This document shows positions 43,615 through 62,945 of a stretch of DNA of 64,000 nt, piece after piece. Position 1 is the stretch's first letter. Every line of letters begins with the position of its first letter. The DNA is from Tenericutes bacterium HGW-Tenericutes-2 (GTDB lineage Bacteria > Bacillota_I > Bacilli_A > Acholeplasmatales > Acholeplasmataceae), in the NCBI GenBank assembly GCA_002839095.1, contig PGXL01000009.1, positions 2,444 to 66,443 of the forward strand. The letters run 5' to 3'. Both the position numbers and the translations under genes were made by a program. The notes beneath the pieces were generated by a model. That model had not been told where the DNA came from, did not search any database, and saw nothing but the letters and a program-made list of their open reading frames with translations.

Positions 43615-43626
43615 AGGAGAATACGA

Positions 43627-45931: not shown

Positions 45932-45941
45932 GAGCGATGAT

Positions 45942-49818: not shown

Positions 49819-49820
49819 AA

Positions 49821-49841
49821 AAAAGGCGTTATGCCTTTTTT
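49821..49841 (+). terminator. Rho-independent terminator after carbamate kinase
   Basis: aaaggc-gttat-gccttt + T-run, directly followed by upp SD. Confidence 0.65.
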
Positions 49842-49853
49842 AAGGAGGGAAAT

Positions 49854-50477
49854 ATGCCATATCAAGTATTCAATCATCCATTAATGAAACATAAGATGAC
49901 GATTATTAGAGATAAAAACTGCGGAACCAAAATGTTTCGAGAAGTTATTGAAGAACTCACAGCATTAATGGTTTACGAAATTAGTAGAGATTTAGAATTA
50001 GCTGAAGTAGAAATTGAAACACCTATTGCTAAGGCAACAGGTTATCAAATGGTCAAGGATATTGTGATTGTTCCAATTTTAAGGGCAGGATTAGGTATGA
50101 CTCAAGGGATTCAAAATCTTATACCTTCTGTAAAAATAGCTCATGTTGGAATGTTTAGAAACCCAGATACACTACTACCTGAGATATACTATGCAAAATT
50201 TCCTAACAACATTCAAAATGCAAAAACGTATATATTAGACCCTTTGCTTGCTACTGGCGGATCAGTCTTAGCTGCAATTGATTTACTGAAAGCAAAAAAT
50301 GTTAAGGATATCTCTGTGTTATCCATCATCGGAGTAGATACTGGTATTCAAAAAATACTAAATAAATATCCAGATATTCAGATTTATTTGATTAGCAAGG
50401 ATGAAAAACTGAATGATCATGCATATATAGTACCTGGTTTAGGTGATGCTGGGGATCGGTTATTTGGAACAAAATAA
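49854..50477 (+). CDS. upp: Uracil phosphoribosyltransferase
   Basis: 207 aa; PRPP-binding motif YILDPLLATGGS, conserved Upp N-terminus; AAGGAGGG SD. Confidence 0.95.
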   Translation: MPYQVFNHPLMKHKMTIIRDKNCGTKMFREVIEELTALMVYEISRDLELAEVEIETPIAKATGYQMVKDIVIVPILRAGLGMTQGIQNLIPSVKIAHVGMFRNPDTLLPEIYYAKFPNNIQNAKTYILDPLLATGGSVLAAIDLLKAKNVKDISVLSIIGVDTGIQKILNKYPDIQIYLISKDEKLNDHAYIVPGLGDAGDRLFGTK

Positions 50478-50479
50478 AA

Positions 50480-50505
50480 AGTTGGATATTTTCCAACTTT
50501 TTTTA
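50480..50505. terminator. Bidirectional terminator (upp / GntR)
   Basis: agttgga-tattt-tccaact + T-run. Confidence 0.8.
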
Positions 50506-51267
50506 CTTGAAATATTTGATAATATCATCCTCTTCTAAGGTTGAAGGAATACGATGTCTTGGTGCACACCATAGCTCACCATATTCGATGAGTCTATCAT
50601 ACTGATCATATGCATGGGTAATCTCATAAAAAATTGGCATGTCCTTAGAAATGTTTAATAAAGATGAAATCTCATCACTACTCGAAACAATGTTTAGATT
50701 ACGCTTTGATTTACTCATAATGATTTCGTATTCTTTTCTAAAGAAGGAGTAAAACATTTTATTAGTCATGTCAACCTGATCTAAATCAGTAAATATATCG
50801 AGTGGAAAATACATGCTTGCAATAAATAAGGGCTGATTGTTGGATTTATATAGTCTAGAAAAATAAACTAAGTCTTGATTTACACGAAATCCAGTCAGTA
50901 ATGCAATCTCATCCGTAGCCTTTAGGGCTATTTTTTTCAATAGGACCACCTCTGGAGTTTCACCGGATGATTTCAATGTATCATTTACATGAATTAACTT
51001 ATTATGAAACACATTTGGATTCGCATTATAGGTAACTTCATAATGATTATTTATTTTAATGACTAATGCCATATCAATAAGTTTTTTATATGCGCTTCTG
51101 ATAGCAGTAGTAGGAACATGTAATTCTTCTGAAAGTTCTTCAGCACTAGGCAAACTATCACCATTCTGAATCTTTAGTTTCATGATACCTACATAAATGT
51201 AATCCTTGATTTGATCAACGATAGAAACAGTCGATCTTTTATCGATTGCCAGTTTAATATTTTTCAT
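50503..51267 (-). CDS. GntR-family regulator, HutC/UTRA subfamily (paralog A)
   Basis: N-terminal wHTH (LPSAEELSEELHVPTTAIRSAYKKLIDMALV), C-terminal UTRA-like effector domain; start set at ATG 51267 (GGAGG SD). Confidence 0.75.
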   Translation of the reverse strand: MKNIKLAIDKRSTVSIVDQIKDYIYVGIMKLKIQNGDSLPSAEELSEELHVPTTAIRSAYKKLIDMALVIKINNHYEVTYNANPNVFHNKLIHVNDTLKSSGETPEVVLLKKIALKATDEIALLTGFRVNQDLVYFSRLYKSNNQPLFIASMYFPLDIFTDLDQVDMTNKMFYSFFRKEYEIIMSKSKRNLNIVSSSDEISSLLNISKDMPIFYEITHAYDQYDRLIEYGELWCAPRHRIPSTLEEDDIIKYFK

Positions 51268-51991
51268 TCTCAATGACCTCCTCAAATTTTACATAATCGC
51301 CTGGAAGTGCATGGAGTATAACTGCAATAATTCTATTTTCAATATCAACAACTCTGGTGGTCGCAAAGTATATCTTATCCTTAATTTCAATGCCTAAAAG
51401 AAGGGCTTCAACATTACCAGCTTCGCTGGCTATAATGTCTGTATAAATTCCAGAGATTTGATATTTATAATCGTTAGTAATCAAGGAGAAAAGATTATCT
51501 GTTAAATCTACTTTCTTCTCAATATTTTGAAAATATTTATATGGGAAATAAATTCTTTGCAAAGAGATTGGATAATTTCCGATAAGTAATCGGTAGCTAA
51601 TGTCATATGTCATTTCACCCTTTTGTAATCCTAAAATAGGATATACTTGTTTTCTATAATCCACAGAGCCTATGACAACAACTTCTTTCTTGGCTTGATT
51701 ACCAAAATTAAATATATCCTTAACAGTACCATTGAAATGATATCTTCGATTGACGAAGGAACCATACCCTTGTTTGCTTATTACTAAGCCTTTTTTAATC
51801 AAATCTTCGTATGCTCTTCTAATGACAGATCTGCTCAGACCAAAAAGATCACAAAGATCCTTTTCTGTAGGGAGTTTATCCAAATGTCTAAGTTGATTTG
51901 AGTATATTGCATTTTCTATTGCTTTAGTAATCTGCTTGTAAATGGGCACCTTAGAAAACTTATCAATATAAATAGGTATCACTTGAATCAC
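51254..51991 (-). CDS. GntR-family regulator, HutC/UTRA subfamily (paralog B)
   Basis: wHTH (LPTEKDLCDLFGLSRSVIRRAYEDLIKKGLV) + UTRA-like domain. Confidence 0.75.
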   Translation of the reverse strand: MIQVIPIYIDKFSKVPIYKQITKAIENAIYSNQLRHLDKLPTEKDLCDLFGLSRSVIRRAYEDLIKKGLVISKQGYGSFVNRRYHFNGTVKDIFNFGNQAKKEVVVIGSVDYRKQVYPILGLQKGEMTYDISYRLLIGNYPISLQRIYFPYKYFQNIEKKVDLTDNLFSLITNDYKYQISGIYTDIIASEAGNVEALLLGIEIKDKIYFATTRVVDIENRIIAVILHALPGDYVKFEEVIENEKY

Positions 51992-52366: not shown

Positions 52367-52462
52367 ATGCAAAACAAGAAACCAGCTCCAAAAGTTCAAG
52401 CGGCTCCAGCTAAACCAGCTCCAAAAGCTCCAGTTCAACCTGCTAAACCAGTTAAGAAATAA
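52367..52462 (+). CDS. Candidate 31-aa Lys/Pro/Ala-rich small protein (MQNKKPAPKVQAAPAKPAPKAPVQPAKPVKK)
   Basis: GAGGTGA SD 6 nt upstream of ATG; below ORF-track size cutoff; composition highly biased so could be non-coding. Confidence 0.35.
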   Translation: MQNKKPAPKVQAAPAKPAPKAPVQPAKPVKK

Positions 52463-52729
52463 TCACTGAAAACAGTTTGAAAGAAGCTTGATTCAAACTG
52501 ATTGTATGGATGCAATCAGACCTATAAAAAACTAAACATACCAACATGCCAGCTCTTACGAACTGACATGTTTTTTTATTTCAAATATCCTCGTATTTAT
52601 TTATATTATATTTAGAAAACGTTATCATACATTATTTACAATGATTATATAAAAATGGGCTTTCCAAATCGAAAATACGTGTTATAATGAGGGTGAAAAT
52701 AACGATAAACAATTTAAAAGGAGTCCCCT

Positions 52730-53245
52730 ATGAATGCACATTCACAGATTACTAGTGAAAAGCTTGCTCTTTTTTACTTGCAATTAGAAAAGAACAAAGT
52801 ATTACCTGGACCATTGATGCCGACACTACATGATGCTCAGCATATTTTTGGTTATATACCATTATCAATTCAAAAAATTATTTCAAAAGAACTTGGCGAA
52901 AGTATTGCTAAGATCAATGGAGTTGTTACCTTTTATGGTAACTTCTCAGTAACACCTAAAGGTAAAAAAACGATTGGTGTTTGTCTTGGAACTGCCTGCT
53001 ATGTAAGAGGTTCTAAGAATATTATGGACACCATCGAAGATGATTTAAAAATTAAATCTGGCGAGACAACAAAGGATGGAGAGATTACTCTAACTGCAAC
53101 ACGCTGTATAGGCGCATGTGGACTAGCTCCAGTTTTTTCCGTTGGTGATCATATTTATGGGAATTCAAACGTTTCTAAAGCCAAGCAAGTCTTAAAGGAA
53201 ATGAGAGAAGCAGCTGAAAATAAGGTAAAAGCCGATGAAGCTTAG
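52730..53245 (+). CDS. hydC: NuoE-like [2Fe-2S] thioredoxin-fold subunit (HydC of HydABC-type hydrogenase)
   Basis: AAAGGAG SD; Cys pattern C..C...C(x35)C in GVCLGTACYVRG ... RCIGACGLAP. Confidence 0.85.
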   Translation: MNAHSQITSEKLALFYLQLEKNKVLPGPLMPTLHDAQHIFGYIPLSIQKIISKELGESIAKINGVVTFYGNFSVTPKGKKTIGVCLGTACYVRGSKNIMDTIEDDLKIKSGETTKDGEITLTATRCIGACGLAPVFSVGDHIYGNSNVSKAKQVLKEMREAAENKVKADEA

Positions 53246-53618
53246 TGAAATCATTAAAAAGTATAATTTCAAGGTCTATACACCTGAAATATTACATGAA
53301 ATGGATATTAATTATGCATTTTGCTCTGATTTAATGAGTGATGCATTAATCATTCTAAATTCTGTTACAGACGAAAGAATACTTGCACAAAGTATGCTGA
53401 TTACTGGTCTAACGACCAATCAATCGATTCGAACTGCTGAAATGCTAGATGTGAATGTAGTTTTACTTGTTAGAGGAAAAATACCATCACTCAAAGTGGT
53501 TGACTTAGCAATTGAATCTAACATTTTATTACTTTCGACAGAACAAACCATGTTTAACATGAGTGGTTTGTTATATGGTGATGGAATTAAAGGAATTTAT
53601 TACAATCAGCAATGGTAG
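53235..53618 (+). CDS. DRTGG domain protein
   Basis: 127 aa; DRTGG-like core (MLITGLTT.. / DVNVVLLVRGKIPS) as in small hydrogenase-operon proteins. Confidence 0.55.
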   Translation: MKLSEIIKKYNFKVYTPEILHEMDINYAFCSDLMSDALIILNSVTDERILAQSMLITGLTTNQSIRTAEMLDVNVVLLVRGKIPSLKVVDLAIESNILLLSTEQTMFNMSGLLYGDGIKGIYYNQQW

Positions 53619-54046
53619 CTAAAGAATATCAAATTATCGCTAAAAATTATGAGTTCGCTGGTCGAGCATCTAGTGATATAAAAAAAACATTAAAAAGATT
53701 AGAAATCGATAGAAATCTAATGAAACGCGTATGTTCAGCATCCTATGAAGCTGAAATTAATGTCGTCATTCATTCCTTTGGTGGATTTGCAGTTTTTCAA
53801 ATGGATGAATCCAAAATTGTTTTAGACTTCATCGATGATGGTCCAGGAATTCAAAACATTGATCTTGCGATGACTGAAGGCTATTCAACAGCAACTGAAC
53901 TAGACCACTCTAATGGCTTTGGTGCAGGTATGGGTTTACCTAACATCAAACGCATTGCAGATGAGATGGATCTTCGATCTGATCATTATGGAACACATCT
54001 CAAGATTACATTCTATCTTGGAGGTGACAAAAATGCTAGTCAGTGA
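53612..54046 (+). CDS. Histidine-kinase-like ATPase, anti-sigma-factor (RsbW/SpoIIAB)-type Ser/Thr kinase fold
   Basis: HATPase_c N, G1 (DDGPGI) and G2 (GFGAGMGL) boxes; 144 aa; ATGGTAG overlap with upstream gene. Confidence 0.7.
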   Translation: MVAKEYQIIAKNYEFAGRASSDIKKTLKRLEIDRNLMKRVCSASYEAEINVVIHSFGGFAVFQMDESKIVLDFIDDGPGIQNIDLAMTEGYSTATELDHSNGFGAGMGLPNIKRIADEMDLRSDHYGTHLKITFYLGGDKNASQ

Positions 54047-54365
54047 TTTAATCAATAGTTCATATGAACTGCTAACGAATCAAGATACACTATCGAATAC
54101 AGTTCAAGGAATATATCAAACTGATCTTTTAAGTGCAGCAATCAAAAGTGCGAAACCAAATGATGCATTAATCACGTTGATTTCACATGTAAATACAATA
54201 GCTTTGGCAATGATGATTGACCTTTCGTTGATCATCATTGCTGAACATAGATCAGTTTCAATAGAAATGATTGATAAAGCGAATGAAGAGGGTATTTGCA
54301 TTCTTCGAACGCATTTGAAATCTCATGAAGTCGTTATTGACTTATTTAAAAGAGGTCTCCTATGA
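54033..54365 (+). CDS. DRTGG domain protein (second copy)
   Basis: GGAGGTG SD; 110 aa; related to 53235 gene (ALITLISHVNTIALAMMIDLSLIIIAE). Confidence 0.55.
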   Translation: MLVSDLINSSYELLTNQDTLSNTVQGIYQTDLLSAAIKSAKPNDALITLISHVNTIALAMMIDLSLIIIAEHRSVSIEMIDKANEEGICILRTHLKSHEVVIDLFKRGLL

Positions 54366-55063
54366 TTTATTATTATGACCTACATATACATTCTGTATTA
54401 TCTCCAGATGCTGATACTTTAATGACACCAAACAATATTTTTAATATGGCAAACCTAAAGGGTTTAAATATTATATCAGTCACAGACCATAACTCATTCA
54501 AGCAGCTTCCTGTTTTATATGAAATATCGAAAAGCTATGATATGCTTTTCATTCCTGGTGTTGAAATTTCCGTTAAGGAAGGCTTTCATCTTTTATGTTA
54601 TTTCAAACATATTGAAGATGCGCTTTCCTTCGATGCATTGTTAGATACATGTAATCATAAACAAGGATATGATGAAAAGACTTTAGGAAGATCAGAGATT
54701 ACCGACATTCATGATGCTGTCATTGATCTCTATCCCTATGATTTAACTCTTTCTCTAACTCTTTCTTTGAAACAATTGATTCTAATTCTAAAGGATTATG
54801 ATCATATCTTAGTTTATGCACATGTGGATAGAAAAAAACATAGTGGCCTAGCATATATTCATGAATATCCATTGGATGCGATTGAACTTACTAAAAATGC
54901 AAATAATGATTTCATAATACAAAATCAACTCACAAATCAAATCATTGTATATAATTCTGATGCACATCAGATTACAGATATTTCTGAAAGAGAAAAAATG
55001 AATCAAATGGAATTAGAAAGCTTGACCATGGAGTCATTTTTTAGGTTCTTTAAAAATGGATGA
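54362..55063 (+). CDS. PHP (polymerase/histidinol-phosphatase) domain metal-dependent phosphoesterase
   Basis: N-terminal YYYDLHIHSVLSPDA... and SVTDHNSF motifs; AAGAGG SD. Confidence 0.75.
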   Translation: MIYYYDLHIHSVLSPDADTLMTPNNIFNMANLKGLNIISVTDHNSFKQLPVLYEISKSYDMLFIPGVEISVKEGFHLLCYFKHIEDALSFDALLDTCNHKQGYDEKTLGRSEITDIHDAVIDLYPYDLTLSLTLSLKQLILILKDYDHILVYAHVDRKKHSGLAYIHEYPLDAIELTKNANNDFIIQNQLTNQIIVYNSDAHQITDISEREKMNQMELESLTMESFFRFFKNG

Positions 55064-55625
55064 TTTAGCAACCTATTTATTAGATATCATTCAAAATTCT
55101 ATCACTGCAAAGTCATCTATCATTCATCTTTCTATAGATATTCAAGATGACATGAAAATATCTATTAAAGATAATGGATTGGGTATGTCAGAAGACATAT
55201 TAAAAAAAGCGACCTCTCCCTTCTTTACAACAAGAACGACAAGGACAGTAGGTCTAGGATTATCATTTTTAAAAATGATATCAGAACAAACAGAAGGATC
55301 TTTTCAATTAGAATCTATAGAAAATAAAGGAACAAACCTTTATATGACACTTAATTATCTACATCCAGATATGCCTCCATTGGGAGATCTAGGAGAATTG
55401 ATATATACATTATCCATTCATCAGGATTTAATAGAGTTCATATTTGATTTTAAATATAAAAATCATTCATATCATTATCAAGCAAGTGAAATGAAGGAAA
55501 TGTTTAAAGAACTTTTAAGTACATATTCAATAATGAAAGCTTTAATAGAACTGATTAATCAAGAAATACATATAGATGAGGTGAACCATGAAATCTTTAG
55601 AAGATTTAAAGAAGTTAAGAGATGA
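55056..55625 (+). CDS. Stand-alone histidine-kinase-like ATPase (HATPase_c) domain protein
   Basis: N box (IIQNSITA), G1 DNGLGM, G2 GLGLSF; no DHp or receiver domain. Confidence 0.65.
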   Translation: MDDLATYLLDIIQNSITAKSSIIHLSIDIQDDMKISIKDNGLGMSEDILKKATSPFFTTRTTRTVGLGLSFLKMISEQTEGSFQLESIENKGTNLYMTLNYLHPDMPPLGDLGELIYTLSIHQDLIEFIFDFKYKNHSYHYQASEMKEMFKELLSTYSIMKALIELINQEIHIDEVNHEIFRRFKEVKR

Positions 55626-55956
55626 AGCGTTAAAAAAGATGACAATGCGCTATACAAAAGATGGATATAGAATCCAAATTGGAATGGGTACATGTGGGAT
55701 TGCATCAGGTGCAAAACCAATTCTTTCTGCTTTTTTAGAAGAAATTGAATCACATGAACTTTCAAATGTTACAGTCACACAAGTTGGTTGTATGGGCGAA
55801 TGTGCCTATGAACCAATGGCAGAGGTCATTGATATGAATGGTCAGTCCTACGTATATTGTGGGGTAACTATTCCTATGGTTAAGGAAATCATTGAGAAGC
55901 ATATTATCAATAATGAGCCTCAAACAAGATACCTTTTAACATCAAGAAAGGGATAG
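55588..55956 (+). CDS. Thioredoxin-like [2Fe-2S] ferredoxin (HydD-like small subunit)
   Basis: GATGAGGTG SD; Cys motifs GTCGIASGA ... GCMGECAYEP. Confidence 0.75.
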   Translation: MKSLEDLKKLRDEALKKMTMRYTKDGYRIQIGMGTCGIASGAKPILSAFLEEIESHELSNVTVTQVGCMGECAYEPMAEVIDMNGQSYVYCGVTIPMVKEIIEKHIINNEPQTRYLLTSRKG

Positions 55957-55965
55957 GGCGAAATC

Positions 55966-57777
55966 ATGTTAGAAAGAATACAAGTATTAATATGTGGTGG
56001 GACAGGATGCTTAAGCTCAAATGCTAAAGAAATAAAAAAAGCTTTTGAAGAACACCTAGAAGTATTAGAAATGACAGATGAGGTTGGACTAGTTTTGACT
56101 GGTTGTTTTGGCCTATGCGAAAAAGGACCTGTAGTTGTAGTTTATCCTGATGAAACCTTCTACACACATGTCACAGTTGATGATGTAAAGGAAATATGTG
56201 AGGAGCATCTACTAAAAGGTAGACCGTTAGAAAGATTGATGGTAAAAAATCCTTTAGATAAATCAAAGATTAAAAATATGGGTCAACTCAAATTCTATGC
56301 AAAACAAAAGAGAATTGCATTAAGAAATTGTGGAAATATAAACCCAATGGAAATTGAAGAATATATCGCAAAGGATGGATACCTAGCACTAGGTACAATC
56401 TTAAAGGAAAAAACACCACAGGAAGTTATTGATCAAATGATTCATTCAGGTCTTCGTGGTCGTGGTGGTGGAGGATTCTCCACAGGTAAAAAATGGCAGT
56501 TCGCTAAAAACTCAGAATCAGATCAAAAATATGTGATTTGTAATGCTGATGAAGGAGATCCAGGTGCATTTATGGACCGCGCAGTTTTAGAGGGCGATCC
56601 ACATTCTGTATTAGAAGCAATGGCTATCTGCGGTTATGCCATTGGTGCAAACCAGGGATATATCTATGTACGTGCAGAATATCCAGTCGCAGTAGAAAGA
56701 CTTGGAATTGCAATTAAACAAGCAAAGGAATACGGACTATTAGGTAAAAACCTTTTTGGTTCTAATTTTAGCTTTGATATTGATATTCGTTTAGGAGCAG
56801 GAGCATTCGTATGTGGTGAAGAAACAGCATTAATCGCATCCATTGAAGGATATAGAGGAATGCCAAGACTTAAACCTCCATTTCCAGCTGTTCGAGGACT
56901 ATGGGGCAAGCCTACCAATGTCAACAATGTGGAAACACTTGCTAACATCCCTGTTATCTTTTTAAAAGGTGCTGATTGGTTCAAATCCATAGGTACTGAA
57001 AAATCAAGTGGAACCAAAGTGTTTGCTCTTGGTGGAAAAATTAATAACACAGGATTAGTAGAGGTTCCAATGGGCACTACCATCAGAGAAATAGTTTTTG
57101 ACATCGGTGGTGGTATTCCAAATAAAAGAAAGTTTAAAGCGATTCAAACAGGTGGACCATCTGGAGGATGTATTACTGCAGAATTTCTAGATACCCCAAT
57201 TGATTTTGAAAACTTAACTGCCTTAGGTTCTATGATGGGATCAGGTGGAATGATTGTAATGGATGAAGACAATTGCATGGTCGATGTCGCAAGATTTTAT
57301 CTTGACTTCACCGTCGATGAATCCTGCGGTAAATGTACACCATGTCGTGAAGGTACTAAGCAGATGAGAGATATTCTAGACCGTATTTGTGAAGGCCTAG
57401 GAACCTTAAAGGATTTAGATGAGCTTGAACGCTTAGCACACATGATTCAAGAAACATCATTATGTGGATTGGGGCAAACTGCACCAAATCCAGTTTTATC
57501 TACGCTAAAGCATTTTAAGGATGAATATATTGCACATGTGGTTGATAAAACATGTCCAGCTGGCGTTTGCCGTGAATTGACCAATTTCTTTATTGAAGAT
57601 AATTGTGTTGGTTGTGGTAAATGTGCTAAATACTGCCCAGTTAACGCAATTACAGGTTGGCAAAGAGACATACACAAGATTGATTTAGATCTTTGCATCC
57701 GCTGTGGAGCATGTAAAAAAGCATGTCCAGTTAATGCAATAACAAGCAAACCAATGCATGAGGAGGCATCTAGATGA
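55966..57777 (+). CDS. hydB: NuoF-like NADH-binding flavoprotein subunit of bifurcating [FeFe]-hydrogenase (HydB), with N-terminal 2Fe-2S and C-terminal 2x[4Fe-4S] domains
   Basis: FMN site GRGGGGFSTGKKW, NADH site, SLBB, 4Fe-4S CGKCTPCREG, C-terminal CVGCGKCAKYCP and CIRCGACKKACP. Confidence 0.9.
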   Translation: MLERIQVLICGGTGCLSSNAKEIKKAFEEHLEVLEMTDEVGLVLTGCFGLCEKGPVVVVYPDETFYTHVTVDDVKEICEEHLLKGRPLERLMVKNPLDKSKIKNMGQLKFYAKQKRIALRNCGNINPMEIEEYIAKDGYLALGTILKEKTPQEVIDQMIHSGLRGRGGGGFSTGKKWQFAKNSESDQKYVICNADEGDPGAFMDRAVLEGDPHSVLEAMAICGYAIGANQGYIYVRAEYPVAVERLGIAIKQAKEYGLLGKNLFGSNFSFDIDIRLGAGAFVCGEETALIASIEGYRGMPRLKPPFPAVRGLWGKPTNVNNVETLANIPVIFLKGADWFKSIGTEKSSGTKVFALGGKINNTGLVEVPMGTTIREIVFDIGGGIPNKRKFKAIQTGGPSGGCITAEFLDTPIDFENLTALGSMMGSGGMIVMDEDNCMVDVARFYLDFTVDESCGKCTPCREGTKQMRDILDRICEGLGTLKDLDELERLAHMIQETSLCGLGQTAPNPVLSTLKHFKDEYIAHVVDKTCPAGVCRELTNFFIEDNCVGCGKCAKYCPVNAITGWQRDIHKIDLDLCIRCGACKKACPVNAITSKPMHEEASR

Positions 57778-59531
57778 TTAAAGATATCCATATTCAAATT
57801 AATGGTCAAAATATAACAGCAAAATCCAATCAGACTATTTTAAAATCAGCAGAGGAAAATGGAATCTACATTCCACGTCTTTGTTACTTTGAAGGTATAC
57901 ATGAAGAAGGTAACTGTCGTGTTTGTTCTGTGAAGATAAATGATCAAAAAAACTTAAAGCCTGCTTGTAAAACAATGGTTGAAGAAGGCATGAAAATCGT
58001 TACAGATGATTTAGATGTATACCAAACTGTAACCATGAATTTAGAGCTATTATCTCATAAGCATCATTTTGAATGTTTTAACTGTTCAAGAGAAGATAAT
58101 TGCGAATTTTTAGATTTACTTAGAAGATACTCAGTTGAAAATGAATTAACTCATCTTTATGGAGCACATGATGCACAACGATATTTTTCAGATTCCTCAG
58201 GAGTTTTAGAACTAGATAGCAGTAAATGTATCTTATGCGGAAGATGTGTTTCAGCATGTGAAAAATATACTGGATTAGGTATTTTAAATTATAACGAACG
58301 TGGATCAGAAACATACGTAGGACCAGCACTTTTTCATAATCTTGAGGATGCTGGATGTATTTATTGTGGCAAGTGTATTCAAGCATGTCCAACCGGTGCA
58401 CTCAGTGAAAAGGATGACATCAGACTTGTTGAAATGGCACTTCGTGATCCGAAGAAAAAAATTATTGTTCAAGTTGCACCTTCAATTCGTGCAACGCTAG
58501 GTGAAGAATTCGGTTATCCAGTAGGAACCAATGTTGAAGGCCAAATGTTTGCAGCACTTCACGCACTTGGAATTCATGAGATTATGGATACCAATTTTAC
58601 TGCGGATTTAACCATTTTAGAAGAAGGAACTGAGTTTATTAATCGACTTGAAAATAATGGTCCTTTTCCAATGTTTACCTCCTGTTCACCAGGTTGGGTG
58701 AATTATTTAGAGCTATATCATCCAGAATATATACCAAATCTTTCTAGCTGTAAATCACCACAACAAATGGCTGGAGCTTTAATTAAGACCTATTATGCGA
58801 AAGAGCTCAATATGGATCCAAAGGATATTGTATCTCTTTCCATCATGCCATGTATAGCAAAAAAGGCAGAAGCAAAAAGAGAAGATATGGGTAGAGATGG
58901 GTATAGAGACGTAGATATCGTGTTGACAACTAGAGAGATTGCAAGACTGATTAAGCGCAGAAAAGTGGATTTTAGAAATTTAAAACCAATCAAGCCTTAT
59001 GGAACACTTGCATCCTATACTGGTGCTGCTAATATATTTGGTGCAACAGGTGGAGTGATGGAAGCAGCACTTAGAACTGTAACTGAAATACTTGAAGATC
59101 ATGAAACTCCTATTGATTTCAAGGAAGTTCGTGGAAATCAAGATATTAAAGAAGCAACCTATATGATTAAAGGAACACCAATTCATATTGCAGTCGTTCA
59201 TGGTGGTACCGCGATAAAAACATTTATGGAAGACATGATTAAAAATAACAAGAAATATCATTTCGTTGAAATCATGGGTTGCACAGGTGGTTGTATCAAT
59301 GGTGGTGGTCAACCGATTGTTCCAGCAAAGATTTATGAAAAGGTTGATATTCGTTCCATTAGAGCAAGCGTATTATATGATATCGATTCTAAATCTGATT
59401 TGAGAAAATCCCATAACAATCCGTTTGTTAAAAAATTATATGAAGATTTCCTAGGTCATCCAAACTCACATAAATCTCATGAATTGCTGCATACATCATA
59501 TAAGAAAAGAGAAATCTACAACAACATTTAG
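57774..59531 (+). CDS. hydA: [FeFe]-hydrogenase catalytic subunit (HydA, M3-type N-terminal arrangement) with variant L1 motif TSCSP
   Basis: N-terminal 2Fe-2S, His-ligated 4Fe-4S (HKHHFECFNCSREDNC), two 4Fe-4S, H-domain motifs FTSCSPGW (L1 variant), MPCIAKKAEA (L2), EIMGCTGGCINGGGQP (L3); ATGA overlap with hydB. Confidence 0.9.
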   Translation: MIKDIHIQINGQNITAKSNQTILKSAEENGIYIPRLCYFEGIHEEGNCRVCSVKINDQKNLKPACKTMVEEGMKIVTDDLDVYQTVTMNLELLSHKHHFECFNCSREDNCEFLDLLRRYSVENELTHLYGAHDAQRYFSDSSGVLELDSSKCILCGRCVSACEKYTGLGILNYNERGSETYVGPALFHNLEDAGCIYCGKCIQACPTGALSEKDDIRLVEMALRDPKKKIIVQVAPSIRATLGEEFGYPVGTNVEGQMFAALHALGIHEIMDTNFTADLTILEEGTEFINRLENNGPFPMFTSCSPGWVNYLELYHPEYIPNLSSCKSPQQMAGALIKTYYAKELNMDPKDIVSLSIMPCIAKKAEAKREDMGRDGYRDVDIVLTTREIARLIKRRKVDFRNLKPIKPYGTLASYTGAANIFGATGGVMEAALRTVTEILEDHETPIDFKEVRGNQDIKEATYMIKGTPIHIAVVHGGTAIKTFMEDMIKNNKKYHFVEIMGCTGGCINGGGQPIVPAKIYEKVDIRSIRASVLYDIDSKSDLRKSHNNPFVKKLYEDFLGHPNSHKSHELLHTSYKKREIYNNI

Positions 59532-59538
59532 GAGACTT

Positions 59539-60441
59539 ATGAAAAAAATATTACTCATCATTCTTTTATCTTTCATCCTATTTGGATGCAAGAAGGATGA
59601 TTCAATTACAATCATTGTTCCATATGGTAGTCCAAAGCTTGCTCAACTCTATCTAGAAAATTCTGATGATTATCAAGTGGATGTAGTCAATGGAGCAGAT
59701 CCATTAGTTGCAGCATTCGGTTCATCTTCACATGATGTTATTTTCGCACCAACCAATTTAGGTGCGAAAATGTATCAATCTAAGGATTCATATCAATTAC
59801 TTGCAACCATAGTTTGGGGTAATTATTACTTAGTTTCTAGTGAAGAGCAAGAATTTAATATTTCATCACTTGATGGAAAAAGAATTACTGTTTTTGGAAA
59901 GAATCAAACCTCAGACATTATTTTGACTTACCTTCTTCAAGAGCTAGATATAGAAGTAGAAATAACATATGTGGATTCAGTTAGCTCAGCAGCTCAGCTA
60001 TTTCTTTCTTCTCAAGAAAGTATTGTTTTGTTAGCTGAACCAGTTTATTCTAATGTCATGAGCCAGCTACCTCAAACAAAAACGATAGACATTCAAGAGC
60101 TTTATCAAAGTGTTACAGGTAAAGATTCATATCCCCAATCCGGAGTATTTATTAAGAGAAATTTGGAGCAATCCAAGATTTTAAAAATTCAAAATGATTT
60201 GATAGAATCTATTGAAAAAACGAATCAATATCCCTTGGATGCTGCACAACTTGCAGTAGAGCTTCAAATGGGATTAACTAGTGAAATTATAGCAAGTGCT
60301 ATTTTAAATAGTAATTTGCGGTATGTATCTGCTAAAAACTCAAAAGAGGATATAGTTTCTTATTTTGGGTTAATCCTAAGCATGAATCCAGCATTAATTG
60401 GTGGTCAGCTACCAAATGACTTATTTTACAATGGTGATTAG
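59539..60441 (+). CDS. ABC transporter substrate-binding lipoprotein (NMT1/SsuA-like, NitT/TauT family)
   Basis: AGGAGA SD; lipobox LFGC; periplasmic-binding fold type 2 features; no terminator after hydA. Confidence 0.65.
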   Translation: MKKILLIILLSFILFGCKKDDSITIIVPYGSPKLAQLYLENSDDYQVDVVNGADPLVAAFGSSSHDVIFAPTNLGAKMYQSKDSYQLLATIVWGNYYLVSSEEQEFNISSLDGKRITVFGKNQTSDIILTYLLQELDIEVEITYVDSVSSAAQLFLSSQESIVLLAEPVYSNVMSQLPQTKTIDIQELYQSVTGKDSYPQSGVFIKRNLEQSKILKIQNDLIESIEKTNQYPLDAAQLAVELQMGLTSEIIASAILNSNLRYVSAKNSKEDIVSYFGLILSMNPALIGGQLPNDLFYNGD

Positions 60442-61176
60442 ATGAAAAAGACGATTTGGATATCCAGCTCAATATTTGTTTTATTTCTTATTTGGGTTTT
60501 GACATATCAAGTCATCGATCATCCGTTGATTATGCCATCACCGCAAGCAGTTTTTTTGTCATTATTCAATATATTAACAAATTTGGATTCTTTAGGTATC
60601 ATTTTAGCGTCTATTTTTAGATTGATTATATCCATTGTCTTATCAACAGTATTAGGAATCATTCTCGGTATGCTATCTGGTCTTTACCAAAAAGTCTCAT
60701 GGGTAATGAAGCCATACGTTACTATTTTAAGAACAATTCCAGTCATATCGATTATTGTGATCCTACTCATTTTATTTGGTTACCGAATCACACCATTTGT
60801 AATTACCTTCTTAATGGTTTTTCCAATCGTGTTTCAAGCAGCAGAATCAGGTATAAAAGCTATTAATCACGAGTTAATTGATGTTTATCGATTAGAGGAG
60901 CACCACTTTTTTATCTCACTTAAATTTTTATATTTTCCAATGATTCAAAAATATCTAATCCTTTCCTTTCTCCAATCCTTTGGGTTAGGCTTAAAGGTGT
61001 TAGTCATGGCAGAATACCTAGGACAAACTAGAAATTCCATTGGTAATTCGCTATACCTAGCAAGAATGAACTTAGACTATTCAGCAGTATTTGCTTGGAC
61101 GATTTTATTAATTTTAATCTCGTTTGGAATAGAATATATAGTCCATTACTACCAGTTAAGGAAACTTGTTGATTAG
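60442..61176 (+). CDS. ABC transporter permease (NitT/TauT family, BPD_transp_1)
   Basis: 6 TM with EAA-like loop (AESGIKAINHELIDVYRL); start abuts SBP stop; no ATPase gene adjacent. Confidence 0.7.
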   Translation: MKKTIWISSSIFVLFLIWVLTYQVIDHPLIMPSPQAVFLSLFNILTNLDSLGIILASIFRLIISIVLSTVLGIILGMLSGLYQKVSWVMKPYVTILRTIPVISIIVILLILFGYRITPFVITFLMVFPIVFQAAESGIKAINHELIDVYRLEEHHFFISLKFLYFPMIQKYLILSFLQSFGLGLKVLVMAEYLGQTRNSIGNSLYLARMNLDYSAVFAWTILLILISFGIEYIVHYYQLRKLVD

Positions 61177-61403: not shown

Positions 61404-62159
61404 ATGGCACTATTTGAATGTAATATTAAGTCAGATGTTCTAGAATTAAACGTAGCAGTGAATGTTATTATTCCACAAGACGTAAAAAAAGGAGAAAAGC
61501 TGCAAGCAGTCTATCTCCTTCATGGATATATTGGAAATCATACAGATTGGTGTAGATATAGCTCTGTCGAACGCTATGCATGGGAGCATAGATTCGCAAT
61601 CATTATGCCTGGTGTGAATAATAGCTATTATTCGAATACCAAATTTGGACAAAAATATTTAGACTATGTTTCCATTGAACTACCAGAAATCATATCAAGA
61701 ATGTTTCCGATATCTGACAAAAGAGAGGATAATTTTGTTTGCGGTTTATCCATGGGAGGATATGGAGCACTTAGAGTTGCTCTACATAATCCAAAGAGAT
61801 TCTCTAAGGCTGCGAGTCTTTCAGGAGCTGTAAATATTGATTCCATTAAAAAGCTAGTTGAAGATACTCCAAGAAAGCACTTTACAAACGCAACCTTTGG
61901 TGAAGCCTCAACAAAAGATACAGAAAATGATTTACTATATCTCATTCAAACACATCAAAAAAATAAACAGGAGCTACCAAATATTTATCTTGCTTGCGGT
62001 ACAGAAGATTTTTTGTATAAGGATAATCTAGAATTTAAGAGAGCATTGGATCATTTAAAGATGCCTTACACCTATGAGGAATCTAAGGGAGATCATAACT
62101 GGGCATTTTGGGATGAATATTTGCAAAAAGTATTATATTGGCTAGAAAAAAAGGTCTAA
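61404..62159 (+). CDS. Esterase family protein (esterase D / tributyrin esterase-like alpha/beta hydrolase)
   Basis: Nucleophile elbow GLSMGGYGAL, esterase-D-like N-terminus; own extended -10 (TGaTATAAT). Confidence 0.8.
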   Translation: MALFECNIKSDVLELNVAVNVIIPQDVKKGEKLQAVYLLHGYIGNHTDWCRYSSVERYAWEHRFAIIMPGVNNSYYSNTKFGQKYLDYVSIELPEIISRMFPISDKREDNFVCGLSMGGYGALRVALHNPKRFSKAASLSGAVNIDSIKKLVEDTPRKHFTNATFGEASTKDTENDLLYLIQTHQKNKQELPNIYLACGTEDFLYKDNLEFKRALDHLKMPYTYEESKGDHNWAFWDEYLQKVLYWLEKKV

Positions 62160-62175
62160 AATTTAGACCTTTTTG
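62152..62175. terminator. Bidirectional terminator between convergent esterase genes
   Basis: aggtcta-(aaatt)-tagacct + T-run; contains both stop codons. Confidence 0.75.
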
Positions 62176-62945
62176 TTTATCCAAAGTACAAATTCCTTAA
62201 ATACTTTTCTCCATGCAAGCTCATTGTGTTTATCATCTGTTTCAATATAGAATATATCACTTACATTTTTACTTTCTAGCAAACTCTTCAAGTTTCTACT
62301 ATTATTTAAATATATTTCACTAAAGCTAGGATTACTTTCATCTGAACTTTCCTTTTTACCAATGGATATAAAGTATCTTTGATCAGAATCAATATCAGCA
62401 GATTCTAAAAAATTTAAGAAATCAGGTTCATTAAACCACGATGCGAGTGAGAAAACACCAATGACTGAAAATACATTTGGATATTTTACTCCAATATAAG
62501 TAGAAATATAGGCTCCCATTGAGCTACCTGCTATCATTGTATGTTCATAATCTGCTAGGGTTCTATAGATTTGGTCGATATAGGGCTTCACCTGATTAAC
62601 AACGAAGTCAGCATAAACATCTCCTAATCCACCAGTATCAATTGCTGTAATTTTTTTAACCTCAGGAACACTTTTCCAAGGTGAATACTCAAATAATCTT
62701 AGCTCTGAATTATCAATACCAACAACAATCATTTGATCTAGCTTTAAATCCTTCAAGGTTTCATCAATACCCCAAGAATGACCTCCATAAGATGTTTCAT
62801 CCTCAAACAAATTTTGTCCATCATGCATGTAGAGTACAGGATACTTTTGATTCGAGTTTTCATATCCTTCTGGAAGAAGAACACGTAGTGTACGTGGTTG
62901 ATTAGAAGTTAGTATAGGTAATTGAAGGAGTTGAATATTTTTCAT
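62163..62945 (-). CDS. Alpha/beta hydrolase, putative esterase (PF00756-like)
   Basis: AGAGAGG SD; nucleophile elbow AGSSMGAYIS; 260 aa. Confidence 0.75.
   Translation of the reverse strand: MKNIQLLQLPILTSNQPRTLRVLLPEGYENSNQKYPVLYMHDGQNLFEDETSYGGHSWGIDETLKDLKLDQMIVVGIDNSELRLFEYSPWKSVPEVKKITAIDTGGLGDVYADFVVNQVKPYIDQIYRTLADYEHTMIAGSSMGAYISTYIGVKYPNVFSVIGVFSLASWFNEPDFLNFLESADIDSDQRYFISIGKKESSDESNPSFSEIYLNNSRNLKSLLESKNVSDIFYIETDDKHNELAWRKVFKEFVLWINKKV

Follow-up and report, generated by a model that had tools for sequence, protein, structure and literature searches.

What do two DRTGG-fold proteins, two GHKL ATPases and a PHP phosphoesterase contribute to the operon of an [FeFe]-hydrogenase? The question is raised by nine close-set genes (hydC, Da, Ka, Db, PHP, Kb, hydD, hydB and hydA) on the + strand at positions 52730-59531 of the window, the whole 64-kb stretch of DNA analysed, which comes from a wall-less, anaerobic relative of Acholeplasma (Table 1). 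The nine open reading frames lie on the strand and at the coordinates where a preliminary description had placed them, and independent gene calls on four public contigs with the same DNA concur. That description counted five small genes between hydC and hydB; all five are present, but the total is six, the sixth being a hydD-like 2Fe-2S ferredoxin gene. The genes are packed as closely as it held, with the ATGGTAG and ATGA overlaps it quoted, and the junctions from hydC to hydA measure, in order, -11, -7, -14, -4, -8, -38, +9 and -4 nt. The start of Db is placed at 54033, giving the length seen in its orthologues, and not at the longest-ORF start at 53913.

Upstream of hydC, a hairpin and T-run probably end a 31-aa ORF and may mark the 5' limit of the hyd transcription unit. 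They are followed by a promoter-like site, which is a consensus match only (10/12 matches, TG present), and by the RBS AAAGGAG at about 52718. A search upstream of the operon returned no Rex-box-like site. The genes immediately before the operon, transcribed divergently from it, encode two GntR/UTRA regulators.

Table 1. Features of the hyd locus (window coordinates).
Feature	Coordinates	Strand	Evidence
hydC, NuoE/HoxE-like thioredoxin-like [2Fe-2S] subunit, 171 aa	52730..53245	+	PF01257, HoxE/NuoE models
Da, single-domain DRTGG-fold protein, 127 aa	53235..53618	+	orthologue alignments, profile/fold comparisons
Ka, predicted SpoIIAB/RsbW-like GHKL Ser-kinase-type ATPase, 144 aa	53612..54046	+	Pfam, NCBIfam, motifs
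Db, second DRTGG-fold protein, 110 aa	54033..54365	+	Pfam, orthologues, hhalign
PHP-family metal-dependent phosphoesterase, 233 aa	54362..55063	+	Pfam, NCBIfam, ligand alignment
Kb, GHKL ATPase, 189 aa	55056..55625	+	Bergerat core and C-terminal extension
hydD-like small [2Fe-2S] ferredoxin subunit, 122 aa, four Cys	55588..55956	+	PF01257, E 3e-6
hydB, NuoF-like FMN/NADH subunit	55966..57777	+	Pfam/NCBIfam
hydA, [FeFe]-hydrogenase catalytic subunit, group A3/'A6', M3 architecture	57774..59531	+	Pfam, NCBIfam, motifs
Hairpin, then T-run	52543..52580	+	read from sequence; same palindrome reported on - strand by scan
Promoter-like site TTTCCA-16 nt-TGTTATAAT (extended -10)	52661..52688	+	42 nt upstream of hydC ATG

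The hydrogenase subunits

HydC matches 2Fe-2S_thioredx (PF01257, E 7.5e-43 in Pfam), while the HydD-like protein (ORF7) also matches a clostridial 2Fe-2S ferredoxin model (NCBIfam/Pfam searches); orthologues of 121-126 aa occupy the hydD position in nearly all loci. HydB carries a 2Fe-2S_thioredx domain at 4-80, Complex1_51K, NADH_4Fe-4S and two C-terminal Fer4 domains at 543-593. The N-terminal [2Fe-2S] and C-terminal 2x[4Fe-4S] domains of HydB are said to be necessary for bifurcation (PMC11406978), and the domain set of HydB and HydC appears, at the domain level, to be of the bifurcating type. HydA scores 765.3 bits with FeFe_hydrog_A6 against a cut-off of 765 (NCBIfam), and contains Fe_hyd_lg_C (1.9e-91) plus SSU, Fer2_4 and Fer4 domains (Pfam), with the H-cluster motifs TSCSPGW, MPCIAKKAE and EIMGCTGGC. 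Among solved structures it comes nearest to HydA1 from the bifurcating HydABC complex (7q4v/8a5e); TSCSPGW is shared with the HydA1 of 7q4v, and the motifs MPCxxKxxE and ExMxCxxGC are identical in type. The prediction that the operon encodes an electron-bifurcating-type HydABC(D) [FeFe]-hydrogenase is well supported by these domains and motifs.

A conserved cassette and its missing putative sensor gene

Iterated HMM searches combined with synteny gave 84 loci for comparison, 80 of them from other species. Among these 80, the usual order in Clostridia is Da-Ka-HydS-Db-PHP-(HydC)-Kb-HydD-HydB-HydA, and many Oscillospiraceae and Acutalibacteraceae loci read exactly C-Da-Ka-S-Db-PHP-Kb-D-B-A. The conserved synteny asserted in the preliminary description is thereby confirmed, the gene order being held in >70 species, far beyond chance. 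The embedding of the cassette in the hyd operon is likewise real, but it is no oddity of this genome; it is the conserved neighbourhood of group D (M2e) HydS. In Clostridia, hydS sits between Ka and Db, and its product is a putative sensory group D (M2e) [FeFe]-hydrogenase. Neighbours belonging to the cassette have been on record in the literature since about 2010. The HydS proteins at these loci are 415-470 aa long and lack a PAS domain, 54 of 56 have Cx2Cx4Cx~16C at the C-terminus, and the L1 motif is SSACP, not TSC(C/S)P; these features are group D hallmarks (PMC8163306).

The nine genes are orthologous to, and in the same relative order as, those in the group D HydS-HydABC loci of Caldanaerobacter (TTE0887-0894), C. 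thermocellum (Cthe_0335-0342), Caldicellulosiruptor (Csac_1857-1864), Halanaerobium (Halsa_1862-1871) and Thermoanaerobacter mathranii (the TamHydS locus). The M2e hydrogenase tags upstream of HydABC (TTE0887, Cthe_0335 and Csac_1857; PMC3561251) and the published Halsa_1862-1871 gene list (PMC4237134) are consistent with this order. That similar genes lie beside clostridial hydrogenases, with their biochemistry unassigned, was part of the preliminary description and agrees with the literature (PMC3561251, PMC4237134, PMC8163306, PMC13104023, PMC4694547); at the clostridial group D loci, too, the accessory genes have no assigned role (PMC13104023, PMC8163306).

Unlike in these clostridial loci, hydS is cleanly missing here, Ka directly overlapping Db by 14 nt, and no second H-domain protein was found within the 64-kb window. 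The gene is absent in 12 of 12 Mollicutes-type loci (Ka-Db gap -26 to +28 nt), all loci examined from Acholeplasmatales, Izemoplasmatales and Anaeroplasma being of the HydS-less form, and the PHP sequences of the Mollicutes-type loci form an exclusive clade. Ka, Kb and PHP here keep their full sets of catalytic motifs. Gene content and order thus give good support to the view that the cassette (Da, Ka, Db, PHP and Kb) is a derived, HydS-less form of the HydS-associated set, and that Acholeplasmatales, Izemoplasmatales and Anaeroplasma-type Bacillota typically carry this form. As the cassette is intact without the sensor gene, it evidently has a job or an input that is independent of HydS.

Compared with the clostridial group D loci, Da and PHP have diverged here at many positions conserved where HydS is present. 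The positions conserved in HydS+ loci but altered in HydS-less loci number 12 of 37 in Da and 13 of 57 in PHP, several Cys among them, and 2 of 44 in Kb. The highest mirror-tree partial correlations are HydS-PHP (0.73) and HydS-Da (0.71), although phylogeny confounds both the divergence and the mirror-tree analyses, and neither includes a test of significance. Since the constraints on Da and PHP shift with HydS, these two proteins are likely HydS contacts. Two gene pairs are particularly tight, the Da-Ka and Db-PHP junctions having a median of -4 nt across loci; the Db-PHP gap is <=10 nt in 95% of loci, and this pair is also found by itself (L021, L040, L044, L079) and adjoins rho in two loci. 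PHP and Kb are naturally fused in L048.

A possible switch acting on HydABC

The preliminary description saw a partner-switching flavour in this domain set, and we agree. Not far short of an even chance is given here to the reading that the HydS-less cassette of the HydABC(D) operon works as a partner-switching-like ATP/phospho-switch tuning HydABC. Ka, as a predicted SpoIIAB-type Ser kinase, would bind a DRTGG protein and phosphorylate the invariant Ser of its D-x-[L/M]-S motif; Da would be the prime candidate substrate because it is encoded immediately upstream of Ka and overlaps it as spoIIAA does spoIIAB, Db being the second candidate. PHP, coupled to Db and sometimes fused to Kb, would hydrolyse the phospho-group and so reset the switch, while Kb, which stays with the hydC/hydD genes, would be the output arm that couples the state of the switch to the HydABC complex or its synthesis. 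HydS, where present, would feed in an H2/redox signal, probably by way of Da and PHP. The HydS-less lineage would have lost this input, and its switch would answer to another cue, the most plausible being ATP/ADP or a phosphorylated/redox metabolite at the conserved Arg/Lys/Thr/Ser crevice of Da. A physiological observation that would fit such tuning is the four-fold drop in Caldanaerobacter hydrogenase activity under high pH2 (Soboh 2004, cited in PMC3492117). Such a phospho-switch, if true, would represent new partner-switching chemistry and a rare post-translational control of an electron-bifurcating enzyme, with a bearing on the H2 and ethanol yields of fermenters. A bolder version is unlikely: an autonomous switch without H2 sensor, in which the DRTGG proteins are new phospho-Ser antagonists (STAS analogues), the nuclease-like PHP is a protein phosphatase, the MutL-like ATPase signals directly to the bifurcating hydrogenase and HydS is an optional, discarded input. 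If it were true, flavin-based electron bifurcation would be gated post-translationally by energy charge or redox metabolites.

The likeness to SpoIIAA/SpoIIAB/SpoIIE, RsbV/RsbW/RsbU and RsbR-S-T-X lies in the gene of a small, predicted SpoIIAB/RsbW-type GHKL kinase that overlaps the gene of a preceding alpha/beta protein of ~110-130 aa, whose invariant Ser marks a strand-to-helix junction, and in a metal-dependent phosphoesterase in the same operon; two antagonist-like and two GHKL proteins also recall the two-tier Rsb arrangement. Unlike in those systems, DRTGG stands for STAS and PHP for PP2C, and the second of the GHKL proteins carries an extension of the MutL/GyrB type. As had been observed from the outset, the operon contains no sigma factor, STAS, DHp or receiver domain. 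With neither a STAS antagonist, a PP2C phosphatase nor a sigma-factor output, the cassette is not a canonical partner-switching system.

Ka (ORF3) matches HATPase_c at 31.7 bits, over the cut-off, whereas HATPase_c_2 gives 25.9 bits, just short of its cut-off (27.4). TIGR01925, the model for SpoIIAB, gives E 7e-9, yet only 35.7 bits against a cut-off of 135, and PDB matches to SpoIIAB are weak (E about 0.9). The N-box, G1 and G2 are invariant across 65 orthologues. Of the calls made in the preliminary description, the two for DRTGG were the least secure, and they are upheld through orthologues and fold. Da (ORF2) alone has no Pfam match and Db (ORF4) alone reaches 18.8 bits with PF07085, under the 25.2 threshold; the same model is matched by 52 of the 57 Da orthologues and 54 of the 57 Db orthologues, and hhalign shows the two families to be paralogous (probability 99.4%, E 3.8e-21). 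Invariant residues are D32, M34, S35, T57, G58, Q63, R80 and K82 in Da, and D31, L33, S34 and T48 in Db, which is without the Arg/Lys pair of Da. Both share the family-specific invariant motif D-x-[L/M]-S with the Ser at a strand-to-helix junction (in Da, S35 at the N-terminus of helix 34-43, following strand 27-30), and both are translationally coupled to the next gene, Da to Ka by the -7 nt overlap and Db to PHP by the ATGA overlap. This motif of their own, as well as their existence as stand-alone, duplicated proteins accompanied by a kinase and a PHP enzyme, sets them apart from the DRTGG regions of class II phosphotransacetylase (Pta) and CBS-pyrophosphatase and from the stand-alone AF1212. 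Two points weigh against the proposed switch: to our knowledge no DRTGG protein is a known kinase substrate, and the cassette is missing from many characterised HydABC enzymes (T. maritima, A. woodii). The function of DRTGG is still called unknown (PMC12724200).

The PHP enzyme and possible metabolite sensing

PHP (ORF5) matches PF02811 at 30.8 bits, over the cut-off, and its metal ligands are complete (H8, H10, D42, H43, E68, H76, H154, D200 and H202), all nine being invariant in 60 family members, the window protein included. In profile comparisons with the PDB it is nearest to EndoQ (1.4e-16), TM0559, RNase AM (7ug9) and a TrpH-type enzyme (3e0f), with further matches to PolC, YcdX and the pAp phosphatase 2yb1, and in NCBIfam it matches a 3',5'-nucleoside bisphosphate phosphatase (3.7e-10). 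The PHP protein phosphatases CpsB and YwqE are not among the PDB profile matches at E <= 0.01, and a CpsB/YwqE-type protein phosphatase is not what PHP most closely resembles. A simple kinase/phosphatase reading is weakened because the nearest relatives are nucleases and nucleotide phosphoesterases, not protein phosphatases. In Da, the invariant D32, S35, T57, G58, R80 and K82 lie at C-terminal strand ends and would suit a small-molecule phosphate-binding site equally as well as a phospho-acceptor site.

These features may instead reflect metabolite or nucleotide sensing without protein phosphorylation, by which HydABC would be adjusted to energy charge or NADH level; this is considered somewhat unlikely. 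The DRTGG proteins would bind a phosphorylated/redox metabolite or an adenine nucleotide, as in Pta and CBS-pyrophosphatase, PHP would degrade pAp, nanoRNA or a dinucleotide, and the GHKL pair would act as ATP-dependent conformational switches. The relatives of PHP just listed, including the nucleoside bisphosphate phosphatase match, agree with such a role, and the invariant Arg, Lys, Thr, Gly and Ser of Da at strand C-termini resemble a classical ligand crevice, although the Arg/Lys pair is absent from Db. The DRTGG region of Pta modulates pyruvate activation (PMC12724200), and DRTGG lies within the nucleotide-regulated insert of CBS-PPase (3l2b/3l31 matches), where, however, the nucleotides are bound by the CBS domains and not by DRTGG. 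The MutL/GyrB-like fold of Kb and the retention of the cassette without HydS would also be explained, whereas the cassette lacks genes for a cyclase or synthetase that could make a second messenger, Ka looks specifically like a protein kinase of the SpoIIAB/RsbW type, and the Da-Ka order mirrors antagonist-kinase pairs.

The Kb ATPase and a possible role in hydrogenase assembly

Kb is an orthologue of the Tte0891-type 'histidine kinase-like' genes within hyd operons. It had been described as a stand-alone HATPase_c protein, and HATPase_c is indeed matched (ORF6, E 1e-15), but that description overlooked an overall fold nearest to MutL/GyrB-type ATPases. The Bergerat core is invariant at D10, N14, D39, G41, G43, G66 and G68, and the C-terminal extension consists of a beta-hairpin and three helices. 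No HisKA, DHp or receiver domain was found, Kb comprising a CA-like core and the C-terminal extension only; without a DHp and a cognate receiver, and with a fold closer to MutL/GyrB, it does not qualify as a two-component histidine kinase. Because of this fold Kb looks like an ATP-driven switch rather than a histidine kinase, and its resemblance to ATP-driven clamps more than to kinases speaks against the proposed phospho-switch. So does the position of Kb (Tte0891) outside the purified HydABCD enzyme (PMC4694547), the Caldanaerobacter enzyme as purified being only HydA-D according to what that source relates of Soboh 2004. The stoichiometric coupling and the direct post-translational action on HydABC put forward in the preliminary description are thus far conjecture. 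Among the PADLOC anti-phage models Kb has two marginal matches (E 6e-4 and 4e-3) and the other four cassette proteins none, and membership of an anti-phage defence system was rejected.

Assembly, repair or protection factors for HydABC maturation or oxygen protection, with Kb as an Hsp90/MutL-like chaperone and PHP as a processing enzyme, offer a very unlikely explanation. Assembly is normal in characterised HydABC enzymes that have no such genes (PMC6288185), even though tte0891 formed part of a synthetic operon that yielded active enzyme in E. coli (PMC4694547). The constant position of Kb between hydC and hydD would fit such a role, as would the retention of the cassette in Mollicutes despite the loss of the sensor; the cassette is, however, also found away from HydABC (L029, L048, L056, L061) and beside Bcd/Etf genes (L071), and the SpoIIAB-type kinase and the linkage to a sensory hydrogenase point to signalling.

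Possible control of expression, and related hydrogenase systems

Control of the expression of hyd (perhaps fermentation) genes rather than of enzyme activity, through a DNA/RNA-binding partner encoded elsewhere, is decidedly unlikely. Proposals for sensory hydrogenases lean to transcriptional control (PMC3561251, PMC3492117, PMC8163306), an AraC regulator lies beside TamHydS (PMC8163306), and the hfsB/HydS system alters adhE transcript levels (PMC5707799). The divergent GntR/UTRA pair at the present locus would fit this pattern, but such genes are not conserved beside the operon in other Mollicutes loci and no regulator gene is consistently linked across loci. Similarly, rho adjoins Db-PHP in two loci and PHP is related to nucleases, yet a DNA-binding domain occurs in none of the five cassette proteins (Pfam), and Kb is embedded between the structural genes hydC and hydD.

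In group C (M2f) systems (R. albus HydS, Thermoanaerobacterium hfsABCD, T. maritima HydS), too, the putative H2 sensor is an [FeFe]-hydrogenase linked with genes for a Ser/Thr kinase and phosphatase, as well as with a hydrogenase that is bifurcating or depends on ferredoxin, and genetic evidence for their regulatory role is on record (PMC5707799, PMC11837493). They use a PAS-domain HydS and a PP2C-type phosphatase and are without DRTGG, PHP and Kb (hfs: PMC11837493, PMC5707799); with neither a PAS sensory hydrogenase nor a PP2C in the operon, the present cassette is not a module of this type. HoxBC-HoxJ-HoxA of Cupriavidus (Ralstonia) necator shares the concept of a hydrogenase-linked kinase cascade controlling hydrogenase genes (PMC5707799), but its proteins are unrelated and form a true two-component system with the DHp and receiver that are absent here.

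Group D putative sensory [FeFe]-hydrogenases are under active biophysical study, and their interaction partners and signalling route are stated to be unknown in the field (PMC13104023). A conserved partner set is now defined for them, comprising two paralogous DRTGG proteins, a predicted kinase of the SpoIIAB type, a PHP-family enzyme and a GHKL ATPase resembling MutL, along with the pairs that travel together, and in a wall-less clade of Bacillota the cassette is whole and the sensor gone from these loci. The genome paper of the cultured Peloplasma aerotolerans reports hydrogenases of groups A1 and A3 only (PMC11122141); the same HydS-less operon is present in this organism, which offers a natural 'delta-hydS' background in culture.

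A nine-gene hyd operon of the A3 class

The hyd operon comprises nine ORFs in the order hydC-Da-Ka-Db-PHP-Kb-hydD-hydB-hydA, where Da and Db are DRTGG-fold paralogues, Ka is a SpoIIAB-like kinase-type ATPase, PHP a phosphoesterase and Kb a GHKL ATPase with a MutL/GyrB-like fold. Successive junctions measure -11, -7, -14, -4, -8, -38, +9 and -4 nt, most starts are preceded by Shine-Dalgarno-like sequences, and the gene calls are identical on four public contigs carrying the same DNA, all of which confirms the nine packed genes of the preliminary description. The proteins of the operon are 99% identical to those of Acholeplasmataceae UBA2284. Scans of the operon revealed no plus-strand terminator inside it, and promoter-like hits in the internal-promoter scan (37) do not exceed the number expected by chance (39.4). 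Profile searches identify HydC as NuoE-like, the small 2Fe-2S ferredoxin as HydD-like and HydB as NuoF with an N-terminal 2Fe-2S domain and two C-terminal 4Fe-4S domains, and also confirm HydA, the closest solved structure of which is HydA1 of the bifurcating HydABC complex (7q4v/8a5e). Judged from sequence at the domain level, the operon belongs to the HydABC (A3) class. The L1 motif of HydA reads TSCSPGW, compared with TSCCPGW in CpI. A missing H-cluster Cys ligand was considered and rejected, as TSCSPGW is shared by the solved bifurcating HydA1 (7q4v) and by every HydA of the compared loci for which this region could be recovered, and is therefore normal for the clade, a point to bear in mind where motif rules are applied.

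Features of the window and of loci from other genomes (L handles)
Feature	Coordinates	Remarks
hyd operon	52730-59531	nine ORFs, + strand
HydA L1 motif	58650-58675	
31-aa Lys/Pro/Ala-rich ORF (MQNKKPAPKVQAAPAKPAPKAPVQPAKPVKK)	52368-52463	good RBS; called as gene on 4/4 public contigs
Hairpin + T-run of 31-aa ORF	52543-52580	
RAGATH-8 match (Rfam)	56639-56836	inside hydB
Lipoprotein substrate-binding protein (300 aa) + TauC/SsuC/SaoP-like ABC permease	59539-61176	downstream of hydA
Two esterase genes (PF00756)	61404-62945	convergent; beyond ABC genes
Two tandem GntR/UTRA regulators	50503-51991	- strand; divergent from hyd operon
AllH, AllF (FdrA-like), AllG, carbamate-kinase-like and UPRTase genes	~43000-50500	upstream of GntR genes
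Isolated Db-PHP pairs after transcription terminator gene rho	L021:1106-2178; L040:9637-10708	Christensenellaceae MAG, Clostridia MAG
PHP-Kb natural fusion	L048:9965-11266	Clostridiaceae bacterium HSG29
Cassette with displaced HydS-like gene	L071:8313-14450	Anaerovorax odorimutans MAG
Run of N in Kb	L003:11900-12000	JGI contig

The cassette in Clostridia surrounds a putative sensory hydrogenase

Used as a query against 1.84 billion representative proteins, PHP defines a family of proteins of ~230 aa, with 745 clusters below E 1e-10, and a scan in which each species was represented by one genome yielded at least 597 loci encoding it. In the best 80 of these, ORFs were called and assigned by iterated HMMs seeded with the proteins of the window. 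These loci carry a strongly conserved cassette, with the order Da-Ka-HydS-Db-PHP-(HydC)-Kb-HydD-HydB-HydA in Clostridia. HydC stands either first or after PHP, and the hydC-Kb-hydD-hydB-hydA block is sometimes oriented divergently or located at another site. In Clostridia, Ka and Db flank a protein of 415-470 aa with an H-domain match, in which SSACP takes the place of TSC(C/S)P; a Cx2Cx4Cx~16C motif is present at the C-terminus in 54 of 56 copies. These features are published hallmarks of the M2e or group D putative sensory hydrogenase, HydS, of the TamHydS type (PMC8163306). The “D M2e” genes TTE0887, Cthe_0335, Csac_1857 and Teth39_1463 are located five genes from HydABC genes (PMC3561251), the same gene set is listed for Halanaerobium (Halsa_1862-1871; PMC4237134), and Tte0891, which corresponds to Kb and lies between hydC and hydD, has been described as a “hypothetical protein encoded within the native operon” (PMC4694547).

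The conserved order and these locus tags therefore identify the five-gene module as a known neighbourhood. Its genes are ordinary for Clostridia, and the window cassette, an orthologue of the group D HydS neighbourhood, lacks HydS, the most conspicuous feature of that neighbourhood. The earlier statement that similar accessory genes adjoin clostridial hydrogenases is borne out by the comparison of the 80 loci and by the locus tags. The preliminary description was also right in calling their biochemistry unassigned and in seeing a partner-switching flavour in the domain set, while the HydS context, and the absence of HydS from the window operon, escaped it. Several published papers mention the neighbourhood as “kinases/phosphatases upstream of bifurcating hydrogenases”, the literature holds no characterisation of the HydS-associated accessory genes, and the latest TamHydS paper calls identifying interaction partners “critical” (PMC13104023).

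HydS is absent from Mollicutes-type loci

All 12 Mollicutes-type loci, from Acholeplasmataceae, Mariniplasma, Acholeplasma sp., Izemoplasmatales, Anaeroplasma and one MAG labelled Staphylococcaceae, show the order C-Da-Ka-Db-PHP-Kb-D-B-A and no hydS. The distance from Ka to Db in these loci is -26 to +28 nt, and therefore no remnant of hydS is left. In a neighbour-joining tree their PHP sequences form an exclusive clade, which is consistent with one ancestral loss of hydS. No second H-domain protein was found in the 64-kb window, so that the absence of HydS is known for the locus and the window. The same operon occurs in a cultured member of the Acholeplasmataceae, Peloplasma aerotolerans M4Ah, for which the genome description gives, by HydDB, hydrogenases of groups A1 and A3 only (PMC11122141). 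Literature searches found neither a description of a HydS-less cassette in Mollicutes nor a link between DRTGG proteins and hydrogenases.

The catalytic signatures are kept in the HydS-less lineages at 40-60% identity: PHP has all nine metal ligands, Ka its N, G1 and G2 boxes, and Kb the residues D10, N14, D39, G41, G43, G66 and G68. An apparent natural knockout of Kb in L003, a locus on a JGI contig, was rejected, as the truncation is a run of N at a scaffold gap and therefore an artefact. The synteny, together with the negative plasmid and defence searches, excludes chance and mobile-element explanations; there was no plasmid match, PADLOC gave no meaningful hits, and composition is unremarkable. 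The persistence of the cassette without its sensor sharpens the question of how such cassettes signal, and the HydS-less operon points to a cultured organism, P. aerotolerans, for testing it. In the A. odorimutans MAG, the cassette (Da-Ka-Db-PHP-Kb) also has no HydS between Ka and Db, and is followed by genes for an acyl-CoA dehydrogenase, an ETF subunit and a 438-aa HydS-like protein. There the cassette has another flavin-based bifurcating system as its neighbour, and the sensor-like gene is displaced.

Cassette parts that change with HydS

Of the positions at least 85% conserved in loci with hydS, those that differ in the HydS-less clade lie mainly in Da (12 of 37) and PHP (13 of 57), with lower counts in Ka (6/48), Db (2/16) and Kb (2/44). 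Several of these are Cys residues. Da C29, C75 and C110 (~80%), Db C66 (91%) and PHP C16 (100%), C12 and C49 are conserved where HydS is present and mostly replaced in the HydS-less Mollicutes clade (alignments of loci L001-L084), at the Da positions by hydrophobic residues (Phe, Val and the like). Such replacement may mark the loss of a redox or Fe-S connection with HydS, or equally a general Cys depletion at buried positions; the Da Cys of HydS-containing loci may be merely buried residues and not Fe-S ligands. A crude mirror-tree analysis of 26 loci, with the HydA/HydB background removed, gave the highest partial correlations for HydS-PHP (0.73), HydS-Da (0.71), HydS-Db (0.68) and Ka-Kb (0.67). 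Both analyses, each confounded by phylogeny, agree in placing Da and PHP as the HydS-proximal parts and Kb as tied to the enzyme, which is suggestive only.

A putative ATP/phospho-switch

Profile searches bear out the earlier HATPase, PHP and HATPase identities by confirming the SpoIIAB-like HATPase (Ka), the PHP protein and the second HATPase_c protein (Kb). The best-supported reading, each step of which we infer, is that the cassette forms a partner-switching-like ATP/phospho-switch. Ka would bind and phosphorylate a DRTGG protein at an invariant Ser. An invariant Asp-x-[Leu/Met]-Ser motif is common to Da and Db, and in the Da model its Ser lies at the N-terminus of helix 34-43, right after strand 27-30. 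Da-Ka and Db-PHP are the tightest gene pairs (median overlap 4 nt), and the overlapping order of Da then Ka resembles spoIIAA-spoIIAB and rsbV-rsbW, the gene order of which is established. As noted earlier, no sigma factor, STAS, DHp or receiver domain is present in the cassette. It would work like a partner-switching system without being a member of the family, since it has no STAS domain, PP2C or sigma factor, and it is not a two-component system, because there is no DHp or receiver domain. An analogy to hfsABCD and group C HydS was also rejected, as the literature shows PAS-HydS and PP2C in that module, a gene set different from that of the cassette.

PHP together with Db would reset the switch. 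Their genes are spaced by at most 10 nt in 95% of the loci and are also found as an isolated pair without the rest of the cassette, twice directly 3' of rho and in one of these cases (L021) followed by a pyruvate phosphate dikinase gene. This points to the DRTGG-PHP pair as a unit complete in itself, with uses beyond the cassette. The main rival explanation holds that the cassette senses a metabolite or nucleotide without phosphorylation, PHP serving to break down a nucleotide-type signal. It is favoured by the profile affinities of PHP, which matches EndoQ (1.4e-16), TM0559, RNase AM and TrpH/pAp-phosphatase-type structures and gave no match to the protein phosphatases CpsB and YwqE. It is also favoured by the ligand-site look of Da, in which T57-G58, Q63 and R80-x-K82 are invariant at strand C-termini, a set found only in Da, Db being without the Arg/Lys pair. 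DRTGG regions are part of the nucleotide-regulated insert of CBS-PPase. They also contribute to the allosteric regulation of Pta by pyruvate (PMC12724200).

In the switch reading, Kb would pass the state of the switch to HydABC or to HydABC synthesis; an expression-level output via an unlinked regulator is another rival. Kb remains with hydC/hydD even in loci whose hydC-Kb-hydD-hydB-hydA block runs divergently from the other cassette genes, and in Clostridiaceae bacterium HSG29 PHP (18-125) and HATPase_c (259-355) domains are joined in one 433-aa ORF, Rosetta-stone evidence that PHP and Kb probably act together. The core of Kb is most similar in sequence to histidine-kinase CA domains; despite this, Kb looks in its structure model like an ATP-driven dimerising switch, the C-terminal region completing a GHL-type sheet plus helices. 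An AbiJ_NTD4 identity of this region was rejected (Pfam score 28.7 against a cut-off of 34).

HydS, where present, would supply H2 or redox information via Da and PHP. In Mollicutes, where this input is gone, candidate inputs are adenylate status, via the two ATP-binding GHKL proteins, or a metabolite in the Da crevice. In Caldanaerobacter, NADH-dependent hydrogenase activity drops four-fold at high pH2 (Soboh 2004, as reported in PMC3492117), a hint that is the only physiological pointer to the mechanism. An assembly or protection role of the cassette is a further rival.

Regulatory signals and flanking genes

A promoter-like TTTCCA-16-TGTTATAAT lies 5' of hydC and is preceded by the 31-aa ORF, which has no family match and is placed between the divergent GntR genes and the hyd promoter. 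No Rex-box-like site was found upstream of hydC and matches across the window are at chance level; control by Rex was rejected. A structured RNA was likewise rejected, the single hit (RAGATH-8, 23 bits against a gathering score of 86.7, E 0.011) being treated as chance.

The lipoprotein gene 3' of hydA is separated from it by a 7-nt gap, with an RBS (AGGAG) overlapping the hydA stop, and its product has a weak MqnA/VitK2_biosynth-like hit. It abuts the permease gene, and no ATPase gene is present with the pair. The same pair recurs 3' of hydA in other Mollicutes loci (L006-L009 and L085, Peloplasma) and may therefore be co-transcribed with the hydrogenase. On the other side of the operon, the genes upstream of the GntR regulators suggest oxamate/allantoin-type catabolism; Peloplasma does not share the linkage of the GntR/All genes with the hydrogenase operon. 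The first of the two esterase genes also lies 3' of the permease in Peloplasma.
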